Assembly: GCA_049314455.1 (NCBI GenBank) | Contig: JBMOFC010000003.1 | Coordinates: 6,971-70,970, forward strand | Direction of reading: 5' to 3' | Length of the DNA stretch: 64,000 nt | Origin: Chthoniobacterales bacterium | Lineage (GTDB): Bacteria; Verrucomicrobiota; Verrucomicrobiia; Chthoniobacterales; UBA6821 | Part shown: piece after piece, positions 4,726-51,995 of the stretch | Layout of the letters: every line of letters starts with the position of its first letter | Numbering within the stretch: position 1 is the stretch's first letter | The notes under the pieces: model-generated | Told to the model about the DNA's origin: nothing | The model's database searches: none | Seen by the model: the letters and a program-made list of their open reading frames with translations, nothing else | Position numbers and translations under genes: made by a program

Positions 4726-4888
4726 TATAGTCTTTTAAAGAGAGAAGGGGGCGATAAGACGATGAAATTTTTCTTGATAACAAGGCCGAAGAGCGAGAGC
4801 TATCTTAAGATAACGTGAGTGATGAGAACGCTGTTATCAAGAAAAAGAGCAAGTTCAGATCGTGACCTTATGGATTTAAAAGACTATA
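4726..4888. repeat. Family A nested-palindrome element, copy A1 (163 bp)
   Basis: Perfect 14-bp termini TATAGTCTTTTAAA / TTTAAAAGACTATA. Inner arms CTTGATAACA / TGTTATCAAG. Central palindrome TATCTTAAGATA. Near-identical inverted copies lie at 9902..10065 and 34056..34218. Confidence 0.9.
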
Positions 4889-6354: not shown

Positions 6355-7287
6355 CTATTGTGAACTGCTCCATGCAGACTGAGGTGTTTTGAGATTACTT
6401 CCTATCCATTGAAGTTTCGCACACAGAATCTGAGCAAAAGTTGTTTCTGGGAGCATTGCTAAAGGAAGTTTTTGAGAGGAGGTTGAAAGGAGAAGGCTCT
6501 CTTCCGTTTTCAGAAGGCGAGCTTTATGGCCATCAAGACTAATAAAAACTTCCTGGGTGCCAGTAGCTTTAATCGTCATTTTACTTTGATCAGAAATGAC
6601 CATAGAACGATTACTAAAAGCGTGCGGACAGATGGGAGTAATGAGCAAGACGCGGCTATCAGGTATCACTACAGGGCCTCCTGCAGCGAGAGAATAAGCA
6701 GTCGATCCTGTAGGTGTAGCAATAATGAGACCATCAGCGTTATATTCAGTAAAAAAATGATCGTCGATAAAAATCGAAAGACTTACCAAGCGTGAACGTT
6801 CGCCACGGCTGATTACGACATCATTGAGAGCATTGCCGATGGGTTCTACGTGTTGCGATCTGTTAGTGATCGCAATTTCTAGAAGACTTCTCGGACTTAA
6901 AACATAACTCTGATCAGCCAAGCATTGGATAGCTCTTTTATACTCGTGAGCATTTAAACAGGTGAGAAATCCAAGAGAACCAATATTGAGTCCAAATATT
7001 GGTTTTAAATATTGGTTGCTTCGATGCATAGCACGGAGGATGCTTCCATCGCCTCCCATGACAAGAAGGAGATCGCACTGTTTCGCAAGAGAAAGTTCAT
7101 CTAGCGGTGAGCTTTCCCCAACGAGTTCGGCTGTCTTGTGTTCCATGAAAAAAGAGAGATGTTGTCGTTGAAGCTCTTCAATAACGAGTCGTACAGCAGG
7201 AGCTGCACCTTCTTTTTTTGTATGAGCAATAAGACCTATCGTTATGGGAACCTTAATGCCAATTTTGTGTGTGGGGGCAGTTTTCAT
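6355..7287 (-). CDS. nadK: NAD kinase
   Basis: Motifs GGDGSILRA, NDVVISRG and ADGLIIATPTGSTAYSLAAGGP. Confidence 0.92.
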   Translation of the reverse strand: MKTAPTHKIGIKVPITIGLIAHTKKEGAAPAVRLVIEELQRQHLSFFMEHKTAELVGESSPLDELSLAKQCDLLLVMGGDGSILRAMHRSNQYLKPIFGLNIGSLGFLTCLNAHEYKRAIQCLADQSYVLSPRSLLEIAITNRSQHVEPIGNALNDVVISRGERSRLVSLSIFIDDHFFTEYNADGLIIATPTGSTAYSLAAGGPVVIPDSRVLLITPICPHAFSNRSMVISDQSKMTIKATGTQEVFISLDGHKARLLKTEESLLLSTSSQKLPLAMLPETTFAQILCAKLQWIGSNLKTPQSAWSSSQ

Positions 7288-7300
7288 TTTATAAAAAATT

Positions 7301-7562
7301 GTAACTACTCATGAGTCTTAGGAAAATAAGATAACTTACTCAGCAATTATTACCGAGTTCCTTGTTTAGGGGTTTAGGAGGTTAGGGGAAAATTCTTGAA
7401 ATCATGAACACAATACGCAAAGTGATCTTCAGAAGTATTTATTCAAACAAGCTGCGTAGCAGCTTCTAGGGCATCCCCTAAACTTCTCAACCCCTAAACC
7501 TGGAAATAGACGATAATAACAAATTGAGATAGCTTGCTTTTTTTAGATACCTGAGCTGTTAC
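7301..7562. mobile_element. Family B MITE-like element, copy B1 (262 bp)
   Basis: Imperfect terminal inverted repeats GTAACTACTCATGAG / CCTGAGCTGTTAC. Flanked by perfect 8-bp direct repeats AAAAAATT (7293..7300 and 7563..7570). The second copy, 48154..48382, is inverted relative to this one. Confidence 0.8.
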
Positions 7563-7585
7563 AAAAAATTCTACAATACATTCGA

Positions 7586-8341
7586 TCACGGTATGCTGTT
7601 CGAGGGACGTAACAGTGCCAAGTATTCTATATTGCCAGTCATTCCAGGAAGTGGGGATTCCATGACTTTTTCAAAATGATGCCCCTCATTTTTTACCCAA
7701 AAGCGGATAGATTCAACGGCTTTTTCTCGGAGTAGTGGGTCACGTACAATTCCTCCGCGGCTAACTTCGTTTCGTGAGAGTTCAAATTGTGGTTTGATTA
7801 ACACAATCATGCGCCCTTGCGGCTTGAGGAGAGAAAAGGCAGCAGGAAGAACTCGTGTGAGTGAAATAAAACTTAAATCACCCACAATGAGGTCAAAGAG
7901 TTCGATGAAATCACTTGGTTGAAGATAGCGTGCATTGATTCCTTCGCGAATTTCTACACGTGAATCCTGACGTAAGGACCAAGCGAGTTGACCGACCCCA
8001 ACATCAATACCAGTTACCTTTTTTGCTCCATGTTGCAATAGGCAATCTGTAAAACCACCTGTAGAAGAGCCTAAATCGAGGCAATTGAGGTCAGTGGGAT
8101 TGATAGAAAAACCATCTAGTGCTCCTTCCAGTTTGTGTCCACCACGGCTCACGTAACGTTCACGCTTGGTGAGAGCGATATCGCTAGTGATCGGAACTTT
8201 TGTGCCGACTTTAGTCACCATCACTCCATTTACAAGAACCTGGCCAGCAAGAATGGAGCGCTGTGCCTTTTCTCGAGAGGCACACAATCCTTTTTCGTGA
8301 AGAAGTTGATCCAGTCGCAAACGATCTACAGCGGCACTCAT
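7586..8341 (-). CDS. tlyA: TlyA-family rRNA (cytidine-2'-O)-methyltransferase / hemolysin A-like
   Basis: N-terminal S4 domain (RLDQLLHEKGLCASREKAQRSILAGQVLVNG), followed by an FtsJ-like methyltransferase domain (LDLGSSTGGFTDCLLQHGA). Confidence 0.88.
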   Translation of the reverse strand: MSAAVDRLRLDQLLHEKGLCASREKAQRSILAGQVLVNGVMVTKVGTKVPITSDIALTKRERYVSRGGHKLEGALDGFSINPTDLNCLDLGSSTGGFTDCLLQHGAKKVTGIDVGVGQLAWSLRQDSRVEIREGINARYLQPSDFIELFDLIVGDLSFISLTRVLPAAFSLLKPQGRMIVLIKPQFELSRNEVSRGGIVRDPLLREKAVESIRFWVKNEGHHFEKVMESPLPGMTGNIEYLALLRPSNSIP

Positions 8342-9901: not shown

Positions 9902-10065
9902 TATAGTCTTTTAAATCCATAAGGGCACGATCTAAACTTGCTCTTTTTCTTGATAACAGCGTTCTCATCACTCACGTTATCTTAAGATAGCGCTCGTTCT
10001 TCGGCCTTGTTATAAAAGAAAAATTTCATCGTCTTATCGCGCTCTTCTCTCTTTAAAAGACTATA
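9902..10065. repeat. Family A element, copy A2 (164 bp), inverted relative to A1
   Basis: Same TATAGTCTTTTAAA termini. Hand alignment to the reverse complement of A1 shows only a handful of substitutions and one 1-nt indel. Confidence 0.9.
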
Positions 10066-29060: not shown

Positions 29061-29268
29061 TTAACCCGGATTTTTCATGCTGATCGTGACGAGGAGACCG
29101 CGAAGGCTGATGGGGTAAGGCGGGCGAGCATTTTGATGTTCCCGCTTTCGCGTGAATGACGTGGTCTGTATGTGTGCATATACTGCCCAAGTCAAAGTGT
29201 AAGTCTAACGTAGCATTCATTTGGCTTCTCGGTCTCCGCAGTAGATCAGTATAAAATATCCGTGTTAA
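29061..29268. mobile_element. Family C MITE-like element, copy C1 (208 bp)
   Basis: Termini TTAACCCGGATTTTTCATGCTGATC / GATCAGTATAAAATATCCGTGTTAA. Inner pairing GGAGACCG / CGGTCTCC. Shares both arms with 35310..35577. Confidence 0.8.
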
Positions 29269-29298
29269 CCCGAGTCTTTCTGAAACAATCAATGCTCC

Positions 29299-30991: not shown

Positions 30992-31768
30992 ATGTATTCC
31001 TCAATTAAATCAATAATATCAGTAGCTACTAATTATTTTAGCACTACTTCTGGAACAAAAAGCTCTACATCGAATTCCTCAGCTGCTCCAACTGATGTTA
31101 CTGGACAAGCCCATTCAAGTAAAAATAGTTTTTTAAACTTATTTAATAAATGGAACTTTTTTGCTACTCCTTCATCATCTTCAGTACAACCTGAACCTAT
31201 TGAAATGGTTTCATGTGTTAGGAACAGTGAATTCGATGCAACTAACCAGAGGAGTCAATCTGATATAGATGCAAGGATTAGACACCTTGATTCAGATAAA
31301 AATAAGATTGCTACTTCTTCATCATCTTCAGTACAACCTGAACCTATTGAAATGGTTTCATTTGTTAAGAACAGTGAATTCGATGCAACTAACCAGAGGA
31401 GTCAATCTAATATAGATGCAAGGATTAGACACCTTGATTCAGATAAACATAATATGTCTTTAAGATGCGCTGTAGATAAAGCGCTTATTTACCTTCAAGT
31501 TAATAAAGATGATAAAGCTAGGGAATGTCTTACTGAAGCAGTTGAAACCGTATTTAGTCAGAGCTCATATGATAAAGGAAAAGATCCAAAACAGCTGGTA
31601 GATGTTGTCCTAGATATTTTAAAACGACAAAAACCGCTTCCAGATGATGAGTTAAATGGAAGCAAGAGTACTAAAGGTGAATTAGGACGTAAGAACACGG
31701 TGATGAAGGAAGTTCTTGAGATTATTATTGCCTCAAATCATTGGGAGACTATCAATCTAAACAAATAG
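30992..31768 (+). CDS. orphan hypothetical protein with internal 49-aa tandem duplication
   Basis: 258-aa ORF. S/T-rich N-terminus with no signal peptide. Duplicated block SSSSVQPEPIEMVS.V.NSEFDATNQRSQS.IDARIRHLDSDK. Helical C-terminal part. Confidence 0.6.
   Translation: MYSSIKSIISVATNYFSTTSGTKSSTSNSSAAPTDVTGQAHSSKNSFLNLFNKWNFFATPSSSSVQPEPIEMVSCVRNSEFDATNQRSQSDIDARIRHLDSDKNKIATSSSSSVQPEPIEMVSFVKNSEFDATNQRSQSNIDARIRHLDSDKHNMSLRCAVDKALIYLQVNKDDKARECLTEAVETVFSQSSYDKGKDPKQLVDVVLDILKRQKPLPDDELNGSKSTKGELGRKNTVMKEVLEIIIASNHWETINLNK
31163..31456 (+). repeat. 2 x 147-bp in-frame tandem duplication inside CDS 30992..31768
   Basis: Units 31163..31309 and 31310..31456 differ at only a few positions until the last ~12 nt. 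Confidence 0.95.
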
Positions 31769-34055: not shown

Positions 34056-34218
34056 TATAGTCTTTTAAATCCATAAGGGCACGATCTGAACTTGCTCTTT
34101 TTCTTGATAACAGCGTTCTCATCACTCACGTTATCTTAAGATAGCGCTCGCTCTTCGGCCTTGTTATCAAGAAAAATTTCATCCTCTTATCGCGCCCTTC
34201 TCTCTTTAAAAGACTATA
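34056..34218. repeat. Family A element, copy A3 (163 bp), same orientation as A2
   Basis: Same termini and internal arms. A handful of differences from A2 by hand alignment. Confidence 0.9.
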
Positions 34219-34494
34219 TTCGTTCAAGGAAGCGGAACGTACCCGTTCAGGGAACAGCTAATGCTGAAGACGAAAGGGCAGAAAGTCGAATACTCGATGA
34301 ATAAATTGATCTGCGATTATCAGCATTAGATTCAAACGATTGTTTCTTCCTTCTGAAGTGAATTTGCCTACAGCCTTATCCGTTCCTGTGAACGGATACC
34401 TGACTACCCCCCTAAACTTCTAAACCTCTAACCGTCTCATTCTCCATACGTCTTGCAATGGAACTAAATTTTTATTTTGGACAAGAGTAATTTT

Positions 34495-35309: not shown

Positions 35310-35577
35310 CTAGCCCGGATATTTCATGCTGATCGTGACGAAGAGGAGACCGCAAAGTCTTATGAGGCAAGGCAGGCGAGCATTTTGATGCCAGGCTGTA
35401 TGTGTAATATTGACTTGCTCGATCCTGCTCGGCTCGCCCCTTCGGTGCTTTCCTTCGGAAAGTCTATCCAGCGCCCTCCCGGACAGCTGTATTGCCCAAG
35501 TCAAAATATGACTCTAACGCAGCATTCATTAGGTTTCCCGGTCTCAGTAGTAGATCAGTGTGAAATATCCGGTCTAG
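35310..35577. mobile_element. Family C MITE-like element, copy C2 (268 bp)
   Basis: Termini CTAGCCCGGATATTTCATGCTGATC / GATCAGTGTGAAATATCCGGTCTAG. Shares left and right arms with C1 but has a different, longer central segment. Confidence 0.8.
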
Positions 35578-46732: not shown

Positions 46733-47060
46733 GTACGGTGTCTAGCACCAAGGACGTGAACGGCCTTTCAAACTCTTCCCGAAAATCCTTATGGATTTTT
46801 TGGCGCTCGGCAGCTGTCAGTCTATCAAATTATTTTGGTAGGCTGACAGCCCATCTTACCTTAAGGCTGGCTGGTAGACTTCCCCTCCGACGAGCTGTCA
46901 GTGCCCATTCTCGGGGAGCCTACCAGCCAGCTTTAACGCTCTATCTCTAATTTTTAGAGATATCATTTTTTAACATATAAGGATGCGATCCCCGCCTTCG
47001 CGGGGATGACGTTCGGAGTGACACCACAAGGCGCGGCTACAGAATTTTTTAAAATGCTCT

Positions 47061-47204
47061 AAATTGAAAAGGGCACGCCATAAGCTTGCTCTTTTTCCTT
47101 AGGACTGCGTTTTCAGATCTTGCGTTATCTTCAGATAGCGCTTCGATCTTCAGCCTTATCCTAAGAAAAAATTTCTGCGCTTCTAATGCGCCCTTTTCAA
47201 TTTA
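47061..47204. repeat. Family A-related variant element (~144 bp) with different but still complementary arms
   Basis: Shares the core blocks of A (AAGGGCACG, CTTGCTCTTTTTC, CGTTATCTT.AGATAGCGCT, AAGAAAAATTTC). Termini are AAATTGAAAAGGGC / GCCCTTTTCAATTT. Inner arms are CTTAGGA / TCCTAAG. Confidence 0.75.
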
Positions 47205-47317: not shown

Positions 47318-48058
47318 TTACGTCTCCTTGCTTGCTGTATAAATCGTAACGATGCCACCTGTCAGCGCTGTCGATCTGGCATTTTCAAAGCCACACTGTG
47401 TTAGAAGAGCACACATTGCTTCACCTGATGGAAAAGCTTCAATCGAGCCACCCATGTATTCATAGGCACTGGCTTCTCCTGTTACTAGACCTGCAAAATG
47501 TGGCAGCACATGATGGAGATAGAAGCGGTAAAATGGGCGGAGCAGGGGAGAAGTAGGAATGGAAAAATCTAAAATTAAAAGATGACCTCGGGAGCGTAGG
47601 ACACGATGCATTTCACGCAAACCTTGTTCCCAAGAGACCATGTTACGTAGTCCAAAAGCTACTGTAACAGCATCAAAAATTTTTTCTTCGAACGGCAGCT
47701 CTAATCCATCAGCTTCGAGAAAGGTGATCATAGGCGTCTTAAAACCTATATTCGCATTCTCACTAGAGTATGAATACAAGTTCTTACTTTTTACTTGTGT
47801 AAGTCTTGCTTGCTCCAACATTTCGTGACAAAAATCTACAGCAGTGGTCTGTACTGTTGGTATTTTTTTAGCAATGGCAAAAGCCAGTTCTCCATTTCCA
47901 GTAGCCACATCAAGAAGTGTTTTAGGATTCCATTGCTGAATTTTTTTTGCAACACAACGACGCCACCAAAAGTCCATTCCACAGGAGAGAAGGTGGTTTG
48001 CTAGTGCGTAGCGCCCTGCAATCGAGCGAAAGAGATTTTTGACGTATTCGGGATTCAT
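47318..48058 (-). CDS. ubiE: demethylmenaquinone/ubiquinone C-methyltransferase
   Basis: N-terminus VKNLFRSIAGRYALANHLLSCGMDFWWRR, SAM motif LDVATGNGE, FGLRN. Confidence 0.9.
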   Translation of the reverse strand: MNPEYVKNLFRSIAGRYALANHLLSCGMDFWWRRCVAKKIQQWNPKTLLDVATGNGELAFAIAKKIPTVQTTAVDFCHEMLEQARLTQVKSKNLYSYSSENANIGFKTPMITFLEADGLELPFEEKIFDAVTVAFGLRNMVSWEQGLREMHRVLRSRGHLLILDFSIPTSPLLRPFYRFYLHHVLPHFAGLVTGEASAYEYMGGSIEAFPSGEAMCALLTQCGFENARSTALTGGIVTIYTASKET

Positions 48059-48153
48059 TAATCAAAAAACAGGAATAGAAGGGATGAAAGAGATGCAATT
48101 AAATAAAGAAAAAAGAATGACCCATAAAAACACAAACAATCAAAAGAAACTAT

Positions 48154-48382
48154 GTAACAGCTCAGGTATCTAAAAAAAGCAAGTGATCTCAATTTATTAT
48201 GATCGCCTATTTCTAGGTTTAGGGGATGTCCTGAAGCTGACATGCAGTTTGCTTGAATAAAGTCTTCTCAAAATCGCTTTGCGTATTATGTTCATCATCT
48301 TAAGAATTCCCCGCTAAACAAGGAACTTGGTAATAATTACTGACTAGGTTATCTTATGTTTCTAAGACTCCTAAGTAGCTAC
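48154..48382. mobile_element. Family B MITE-like element, copy B2 (229 bp), inverted relative to B1
   Basis: Aligns end to end with the reverse complement of B1, except for two ~16-nt segments missing from both arms. Flanked by the direct repeats GAAACTAT (48146..48153) and AAAACTAT (48383..48390). Confidence 0.8.
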
Positions 48383-48466
48383 AAAACTATTTCTTCAAAT
48401 TTTTATTCCTCTATTTTTTCTTCATCTCTTTGATCTATTCCATCCCTGTGAATAAAATTCTTGGTC

Positions 48467-48548
48467 TGCTCACGAGAGGACTCGAACCTCCATGGAATTA
48501 CCCATACGCTTCTGAGACGTACGCGTCTGCCAATTTCGCCACGTGAGC
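48467..48548 (-). tRNA. tRNA-Leu (anticodon CAG)
   Basis: Hand-folded cloverleaf. Acceptor stem GCTCACG/CGTGAGC. Anticodon arm TACGT-CTCAGAA-GCGTA. Long variable arm (class II). T arm GGAGG-TTCGAGT-CCTCT. Discriminator A. CCA is not encoded. Confidence 0.9.
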
Positions 48549-51925: not shown

Positions 51926-51995
51926 GTCACGTTATCTTTGCATTGCGCTCCGTCTTTGGCCTTGCTCTTTCTAAAAATTCTTGCGTTCTTTCATA
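51926..51995. repeat. Family A half-element remnant
   Basis: CACGTTATCTTTGCATTGCGCTCCGTCTTTGGCCTTGCTCTTTCTAAAAATTC aligns to the A right half (CACGTTATCTTAAGATAGCGCTCG.TCTTCGGCCTTGTTAT.AAGAAAAATTTC). Confidence 0.6.

Follow-up and report, generated by a model that had tools for sequence, protein, structure and literature searches.

Introduction

Prokaryotic MITEs are characterised in section 2.1 of PMC10969869 as elements shorter than 500 bp with inverted ends and flanking direct repeats, which are AT-rich, lie in intergenic DNA and give a stable stem-loop transcript. QMITE2 of Coxiella burnetii, as drawn in Fig. 2 of the same article, has direct repeats of 7-9 bp, inverted ends of 23-29 bp and a core of 113-145 bp, and its transcript forms a stable hairpin. 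Among the insertion sequences, IS66 has inverted ends of 20-30 bp starting with GTAAGCG and 8-bp direct repeats (PMC11946415), one example of such an end being GTAAGCGTCCGGCGAACTCACCTT (PMC12888890). In the IS481 family, the target duplication of most members is 6 bp long; IS481EU, a group of related eukaryotic elements, ends in TG..CA or TGT...ACA (PMC10045372). REP units are given a length of 20-40 bp in the description in PMC3733652.

In our study, a repeat family designated B was analysed in a 64-kb stretch of DNA from an uncultured member of the Chthoniobacterales (Verrucomicrobiota), which is referred to here as the window. The initial annotation had described B as a small transposable element with inverted ends and locally duplicated target sites, and this description is supported by our analysis, as the flanking repeats are statistically solid and the corresponding spacers of relatives lack the extra DNA. 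We consider B, with a probability of about 0.8, to be a non-autonomous DNA transposon (MITE) which was moved in trans by a transposase encoded outside the window.

Results and Discussion

Copies of the element and their boundaries

Sensitive blastn has identified exactly two copies of B within the window, B1 and B2, which are placed 41 kb apart in opposite orientations, both in gene spacers. The copies and the repeats flanking them are as follows.

7301..7562, + strand: B1 element, 262 bp under the GTAAC...GTTAC parse (pairwise alignment, blastn, six-frame stops)
48154..48382, - strand: B2 element, 229 bp, reversed relative to B1 (pairwise alignment, blastn)
7293..7300, unstranded: left flanking repeat of B1, AAAAAATT; AAAAAAT or AAAAAT if the element begins at T7300
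7563..7570, unstranded: right flanking repeat of B1, AAAAAATT
48383..48390, unstranded: flanking repeat of B2, AAAACTAT on the + strand and ATAGTTTT on the - strand
48146..48153, unstranded: flanking repeat of B2, GAAACTAT on the + strand and ATAGTTTC on the - strand; a 7/8 match to the other side, with its first 7 nt on the - strand (ATAGTTT) perfect

The B1 locus reads, in order, AAAAAATT (7293-7300), GTAACTACTCATGAG ... CCTGAGCTGTTAC (7301-7562) and AAAAAATT (7563-7570). On the - strand the B2 locus reads ATAGTTTT (48390-48383), GTAGCTACTTAGGAG ... CCTGAGCTGTTAC (48382-48154) and ATAGTTTC (48153-48146), and its flanks on the + strand are GAAACTAT and AAAACTAT. The sequence thus agrees with the ends, coordinates and perfect flanking octamers earlier proposed for B1 and with the 7/8 match of the B2 flanks. 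The GTAAC termini proposed for the family hold for the left end of B1, but the left terminus of B2 reads GTAGC. The end consensus of the family is GTAAC(T/A)(A/G)CTCA.

In B1 coordinates, the homology of the two copies was found by pairwise alignment to cover 7299-7563. Over 229 ungapped columns the identity is 84.3%, so the copies are approximately 16% diverged, and they also differ by two indels of 16-17 nt each. The right ends are identical over 31 nt including A7563 (CTTGCTTTTTTTAGATACCTGAGCTGTTACA). Alignment and blastn have shown that the homology stops sharply at the termini and that the flanking DNA is unrelated between the copies. The alignment also places a TT ahead of the left end and an A past the right end in both B1 and B2, hence the boundary between element and duplication can be moved by 1-2 nt. 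The element has no coding capacity, with stops in all six frames and a longest stop-free stretch of 38 aa across the two copies, and its G+C content is 36-37% (37.4% in B1) as against 42.1% for the window.

Flanking direct repeats

Depending on the placement of the boundary, the flanking repeats can be parsed in three ways.

GTAAC...GTTAC: 8-bp duplication, 8/8 in B1 and 7/8 in B2
TGTAAC...GTTAC: 7-bp duplication, perfect in B1 (AAAAAAT) and in B2 (ATAGTTT)
TGTAAC...GTTACA: 6-bp duplication, perfect in B1 (AAAAAT) and in B2 (TAGTTT)

The last of these gives symmetric TGT...ACA ends. The 8-bp repeats earlier attributed to both copies are therefore borne out for B1 at all eight positions and for B2 at seven, but the shorter parses are perfect in both, which changes the candidate transposase families. 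The duplication length is 6, 7 or 8 bp, between which two copies cannot decide. The single mismatch of B2 under the 8-bp parse is also expected from 16% divergence. As to composition, the B1 repeat AAAAAATT is a low-complexity A/T run and the B2 repeat ATAGTTT is not of low complexity.

The chance of such repeats was measured inside the window itself at a spacing of 225-285 nt. When both octamers were required to be AT-rich, a perfect 8-mer occurred with a frequency of 4.6e-4 and a match of at least 7/8 with 5.8e-3. With only the left k-mer AT-rich, the values were 1.7e-4 for a perfect 8-mer and 3.6e-4 for a perfect 7-mer. The joint chance for both loci, at identical element boundaries, is approximately 1e-6 or less, and the flanking repeats are far beyond chance.

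These values bear directly on the explanation in which B is a REPIN/BIME-like or other hairpin repeat whose spread, by recombination or by a tyrosine transposase (RAYT, IS200/IS605-type), makes no target duplication, its flanks being chance matches in AT-rich DNA. B is indeed a long imperfect palindrome in intergenic DNA, the B1 repeat is of the low-complexity kind just described, and B2 is situated at the apex of another palindrome, which recalls the hairpin-targeting elements. However, the composition of ATAGTTT and the occurrence of repeats at identical boundaries at both loci do not agree with chance flanks, and B has no G+C-rich stem and is far longer than the REP units described in PMC3733652. 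We regard this explanation as very improbable.

Inverted arms and mirrored indels

Internally, B has two long inverted arms, and the following features were located in B1.

7301..7389, + strand: left arm, inverted repeat of 7474-7562, carrying GTTTAGGGG (7364-7372) and GTTAGGGG (7381-7388) (inverted self-match; arm alignment z ~8)
7474..7562, + strand: right arm, carrying CCCCTAAAC twice (7475-7483 and 7491-7499)
7366..7381, + strand: 16-nt block of the left arm which is missing in B2 and mirrors a 17-nt block of the right arm (~7471-7487) (alignments)
7449..7465, + strand: central 7-bp stem-loop AAGCTGC-GTA-GCAGCTT in the apex region (minimum-free-energy structures)

The inverted match of B1 to itself extends over 91 nt at 69% identity (blastn, E = 2.7e-5), and the arm similarity reaches approximately 90 nt into the element. 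The arm-alignment score was 58 for B1 against -9 +/- 8.2 for shuffled sequences, and 23 for B2 against -7.5 +/- 8.0. Two pairs of the central stem-loop are broken in B2.

The GTTTAGGGG / CCCCTAAAC motifs are present twice per arm in B1, 16 nt apart, and once per arm in B2. Each of the 16-17 nt indel blocks is flanked by short direct repeats (TTAGGGG / CCCCTAAAC), and removal or doubling of the DNA between these repeats yields, in each arm, the B2 or the B1 form. The mirrored indels would be sufficiently accounted for by two slippage events in parallel or by descent from two different master copies. The demand for two events or for a diverged master copy counts against the transposon reading. 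It may be speculated that the motifs are candidate subterminal transposase-binding sites.

Orthologous sites in relatives

The genes which border the two copies are all on the - strand.

6355..7287, - strand: nadK, with its ATG 13 nt from the left end of B1 (Pfam NAD_kinase; NCBI name NAD(+)/NADH kinase, MFZ4115282.1; N-terminal MKT common to relative L003)
7586..8341, - strand: tlyA-like rRNA methyltransferase gene, with its stop codon 15 nt past the right flanking repeat of B1 (Pfam S4 and FtsJ; synteny HAD-tlyA-nadK-EIIA-ABC in relatives)
47318..48058, - strand: ubiE/menG methyltransferase gene (MFZ4115322.1), with its ATG 95 nt from the right end of B2 (Ubie_methyltran; NCBI name)
48467..48548, - strand: tRNA-Leu(CAG), 84 nt from the left end of B2 (also upstream of ubiE in relatives)

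For the B1 site, the comparison was made with contigs carrying NadK homologues of 75-77% identity from the protein database. All the fetched relatives keep the order HAD hydrolase-tlyA-nadK, and in most of them PTS-EIIA and an ABC ATPase come next. Between tlyA and nadK there are 6 bp in L003 and 76 bp in L007, and the two genes overlap in L010, in comparison to a spacer of 298 bp in the window. When B1 and one repeat are taken out, the junction reads TGA-TCGAATGTATTGTAG-AATTTTTT-ATAAA-ATG, a 28-bp spacer that is in line with the relatives.

The B2 site was compared with contigs of UbiE homologues of 64-68% identity. The SurA-tRNA-Leu(CAG)-ubiE-FtsK neighbourhood is retained in the two relatives that are closest (L013; L014/L015), and a third (L016) keeps ubiE-FtsK, without the tRNA and without SurA. 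The spacer between tRNA-Leu(CAG) and ubiE measures 111 bp in L013 and 98 bp in L014 and L015, in comparison to 408 bp in the window. The extra DNA is thus absent at both orthologous sites, in three relatives at the B1 site and in two (three contigs) at the B2 site. This comparison is one of spacer length, as the distance of the relatives precludes aligning the spacers base by base. The predicted empty sites are ...GTATTGTAGAATTTTTTATAAAATGAAAAC... for tlyA-nadK and ...TTGAAGAAATAGTTTYTTTTGATTG... for tRNA-Leu-ubiE.

Neighbouring genes and the promoter question

The initial annotation had stated that the copies must contain or displace the promoters of nadK and ubiE. This does not follow from our results, since tlyA and nadK are tightly spaced in relatives, the two copies are oppositely oriented to their downstream genes (the left end of B1 faces nadK and the right end of B2 faces ubiE), and a search within and next to B1 and B2 gave no sigma-70-like promoter. 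As the spacers of relatives are 6 or 76 bp or replaced by an overlap, nadK is probably co-transcribed with tlyA, and there would then be no dedicated nadK promoter to displace. At the other locus, the 95 nt between B2 and ubiE leave room for a native promoter. The search for terminators gave one match, in the left arm of B1 on the - strand, with no excess over shuffled sequences (1 vs 0.6 +/- 0.7). A reading of B as a promoter or terminator cassette was dropped, as neither consensus is associated with the element.

B1 is probably situated inside an operon junction and, assuming read-through, is transcribed as part of the tlyA-nadK mRNA. In this mRNA it would form a predicted hairpin of approximately 260 nt, the base of which would juxtapose the tlyA stop and the nadK start.

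Folding and the possibility of a selected RNA

B1 is predicted to fold into one long hairpin on either strand, with -80.8 kcal/mol (z = -6.3) on the + strand, and the whole tlyA-nadK spacer in mRNA sense gave -88.8 kcal/mol (z = -6.3). The fold of B2 is barely above that of shuffled sequences (z = -2.2). Each of the 85 pairs in the B1 hairpin was examined for differences between B1 and B2. In B2, 48 pairs are unchanged, 4 are kept after a one-sided change, 12 are broken and 21 fall inside indels; compensatory changes number 0. These counts are those of a palindrome in neutral decay and not those of a selected RNA structure. With Rfam 15, no match was obtained over B1 even at E <= 1, and at gathering thresholds the window gave tRNA-Leu alone; the reading of B as a known RNA family was dropped on this null result.

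A selected structured RNA (a small RNA gene, an attenuator or an mRNA-stabilising hairpin), duplicated to two loci and with only incidental flanking repeats, was nevertheless weighed, as B1 folds far better than shuffled sequences on both strands, each copy occupies the 5' region of a gene, and the 16-17 nt indels occur at mirror positions of the two arms so that the arms stay paired. What speaks against such an RNA is the set of broken pairs, three times as many as those conserved by change, together with the lack of any compensatory substitution, the opposite orientations of the copies to their downstream genes and the Rfam result. Further, the fold of B2 is weak, no promoter or terminator consensus accompanies the element, B is missing from relatives with the same gene order, and the flanking duplications would be left unexplained. 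A selected RNA has, in our estimate, very little probability.

Search for further copies and for a parent element

Pfam scans of the non-nested ORFs of at least 120 aa in the window revealed no transposase or integrase domain, in agreement with the earlier statement that the window holds no transposase with matching ends; the precomputed Pfam hits cover NadK, TlyA, UbiE, FtsK and a SurA-like protein. For the conserved right end, an exact 19-mer had 0 matches in genome_contigs (185,579 species-representative genomes) and 1 match in metagenome_contigs (JGI), which lies within an unrelated coding region. A degenerate 23-nt end pattern, spanning three of the four observed ends (the left end of B2, with GTAGC, was left out), matched genome_contigs twice, in Brocadiia and Fusobacteriaceae MAGs, with no further similarity. 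The same pattern had 8 matches in viral_contigs (IMG/VR), 6 of them in one conserved phage gene and none B-like.

Blastn of B1 against plasmids and phages gave no match, nor did blastn of B1 and B2 against contigs L001-L011 (~140 kb, of which ~130 kb are from the NadK relatives L003-L011). At the protein level, a 61-aa ORF starting in B2 had low-complexity matches only, among 1.84 billion representatives, and the concatenated six-frame stop-free peptides of B1 and B2 had no match among 5.8 billion proteins. By these sequence searches, the B family has no relative in the public collections covered; the DNA collections among them evidently lack the source species. A link of B to repeat family A was dropped, the ends of family A (TATAGTCTTTTAAA) being unrelated.

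Exact-protein look-ups retrieved two short Logan contigs of run SRR30676221 with identical nadK and tlyA; the look-up of UbiE retrieved no Logan contig. The two contigs, which are of the same organism, end 50 nt and 24 nt inside B1, an effect that repeats in multiple copies have on assemblies. Several differences between B1 and B2 fall within the first 50 nt of the left arm, hence the break in the left arm of B1 is not explained by B2. The breaks suggest that the genome has additional copies which are closer to B1; low coverage could also account for them.

These breaks are also of relevance to the proposal that B1 and B2 go back to a non-mobile spacer sequence which was copied by segmental duplication or gene conversion and not by transposition. 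The number of copies seen, only two, and their age (16% divergence) would allow such an origin. However, their homology ends exactly at the inverted termini, each copy has its own local duplication, and they lie in opposite orientation, 41 kb apart, among unrelated flanks. The relatives have shorter spacers at the two sites, and the assembly breaks in the left arm of B1 suggest copies beyond these two. The proposal is thus extremely unlikely.

Proposed origin of the copies

The B copies are real MITE copies which almost certainly arrived by transposition. The chemistry of this transposition, and the existence of a transposase acting in trans, are inferred. The inverted ends (T)GTAAC(W)(R)CTCA would have been bound by a DDE-type transposase whose gene lies in another part of the genome or has since been lost. 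This enzyme would have opened the target by cuts staggered by 6-8 nt and linked it to the element ends. Repair of the gaps would then have given rise to the short direct repeats which now flank each copy. By such events, B1 may have landed in the tlyA-nadK spacer of approximately 28 bp and B2 in the tRNA-Leu-ubiE spacer. In view of their divergence of ~16% and of a hairpin with no sign of selection, B1 and B2 are most likely old, decaying insertions and not functional RNA genes. On the other side of the balance, the transposon reading has against it that only two copies, 16% diverged, were examined, that neither a transposase in the window nor an autonomous element with matching ends was found, that the B1 repeat is of low complexity and that the relatives compared at the two sites are distant.

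A more elaborate reading brings several of these features together. B would be a MITE family moved by a transposase whose type is unexpected or has not been recognised, the mirrored GTTTAGGGG modules in variable number would be those expected of binding sites, and the element would perhaps prefer palindrome apexes or very short intercistronic spacers. In addition, its RNA hairpin of 260 nt could process or insulate the transcript and so uncouple nadK from tlyA. We consider this combination unlikely.

Significance for annotation and assembly

B is an ordinary kind of bacterial repeat, with a sequence family not seen elsewhere in the collections searched, from a poorly sampled phylum. Its relevance is chiefly to annotation and assembly, and nothing about it challenges the current understanding of MITEs. 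Elements of this type break short-read assemblies of uncultured Verrucomicrobiota, as in the Logan contigs, and the operon junctions which they widen would be misread by gene callers and promoter predictors. If the partner transposase were discovered, B would offer a way to study the activity of transposons in Chthoniobacterales. Moreover, the position of B1, 13 nt upstream of the nadK ATG in a normally tight junction, provides a natural experiment on the effect of a long hairpin on downstream expression.

Comparison with known systems

REP units are G+C-rich and make no target duplication. B resembles the multi-copy REP/BIME/REPIN repeats in being intergenic and hairpin-forming, with two copies in the window, and differs from what defines REP and REPIN elements in its length of 229-262 bp, its 36-37% G+C and its flanking duplications.

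Under the GTAAC...GTTAC parse alone, the ends of B would begin with GTAA and its duplication would be of 8 bp, as in IS66. Unlike IS66, B matches the consensus at 4/7 terminal bases and one of its two 8-bp duplications is imperfect, and its window carries no tnpA/tnpB/tnpC genes. An IS66 origin was at first favoured on the basis of the GTAA ends and the 8-bp length, and this preference was given up once the 6- and 7-bp parses were found to fit both copies perfectly.

Prokaryotic IS481 elements have TG..CA (TGT...ACA) termini. Under the TGTAAC...GTTACA parse, B would resemble these and other TG...CA-ended DDE elements (e.g. IS3, IS21), as it would have TGT...ACA ends and perfect 6-bp duplications in both copies. 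With one more base per side both copies read TGTA(A/G)C...GTTACA, and with two copies a target preference would have the same look. This parse rests on one shared base per end of two copies; the window has no IS481-type transposase, and B gave no sequence match to a known element. The IS66-like and the IS481-like readings of the partner family both fit, and membership in neither can be claimed.

In relation to prokaryotic MITEs, no autonomous insertion sequence with the same ends was found among the window ORFs of at least 120 aa or in the collections searched. B likewise has no sequence similarity to anything in these collections, from which no parent insertion sequence was identified. The arms of B, at ~90 nt, make the element almost a foldback, unlike QMITE2-type MITEs, and each arm carries one or two GTTTAGGGG-containing modules. 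All the structural features of MITEs listed in section 2.1 of PMC10969869 are nevertheless present in B, with a weaker fold in B2. Like the prokaryotic MITEs of which QMITE2 is an example, B is a non-coding, AT-rich element of 229-262 bp which is located in AT-rich spacers, has inverted ends and direct repeats of 6-8 bp, and has a transcript predicted to fold as one long stem-loop.

Repeat families in the window

Beside B, the non-coding hairpin-forming element of 229-262 bp, a second repeat, family A, is found in the window at the following positions:

4726-4888: family A copy, 163-164 bp class
9902-10065: family A copy, 163-164 bp class
34056-34218: family A copy, 163-164 bp class
about 47038-47190: diverged family A copy, just 3' of ubiE
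51927-51979: family A fragment

The three copies of 163-164 bp share perfect 14-nt inverted ends (TATAGTCTTTTAAA), and the diverged copy lies about 1 kb from B2, the B copy in the tRNA-Leu-ubiE spacer. If TAGTC... is taken as the reading of the family A ends, TA bounds every copy at both sides, which suggests a TA target like that of IS630/mariner-type MITEs. As family A repeats occur beside B, this is therefore a genome with at least two MITE-like families. A short B-like match is also present:

34408-34432: B-like short match, CCCCCCTAAACTTCTAAACCTCTAACC

In a search within the window it was found to be similar to the right-arm module CCCCTAAACTTCTCAACCCCTAAACC of B1, the copy in the tlyA-nadK spacer (23 nt, 91%, E = 0.001), and it is either a stray B-like arm fragment or an independent short heptamer-like repeat.

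Surroundings of the two B copies

48059-48153 and 48383-48466: DNA flanking B2

After subtraction of B2 and one flanking repeat, the tRNA-Leu-ubiE spacer measures 171 nt and forms an imperfect palindrome with 51-nt arms of 74.5% identity and a folding energy of -43.7 kcal/mol, B2 being positioned at its apex. Because this B2-less spacer is 60-70 nt longer than those of the distant relatives with the same gene order, B2 may be nested within a third hairpin element, of which the window holds a single copy.

7288-7311, minus strand: mini-ORF directly 5' of nadK

The left end of B1 supplies, in CTCATGAG, the ATG of this 7-codon mini-ORF (ATG AGT AGT TAC AAT TTT TTA TAA), whose stop lies 1 nt ahead of the nadK start codon. 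Since the ATG is absent from B2, the mini-ORF is probably a coincidence of sequence.

L001 1-50 and L012 1482-1505: ends, inside B1, of Logan short-read contigs from run SRR30676221

These contigs stop 50 nt (left) and 24 nt (right) into B1, showing that the B repeat fragments short-read assemblies; their source appears to be the same organism as that of the window.

Other duplicated sequences

31161-31454: tandem duplication of a 147-nt unit, within ORF 30992-31768
29062-29270: direct repeat, one copy
35311-35573: direct repeat, other copy

The tandem units are 96% identical and keep the frame; the ORF lies in the portion of the window with the lowest G+C (36-38%), and a Pfam search assigned it to no family. 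One copy of the direct repeat is directly 5' of a PPK2 gene and the other lies beside a glgC-like gene, at the gene's 3' end. In this repeat a variable middle, whose length differs between the copies, separates two conserved blocks, one about 80 nt and one about 85 nt long, with 84-91% identity. Such an arrangement is reminiscent of structured RNAs in which one stem varies, but comparison of the repeat with Rfam gave no credible match.
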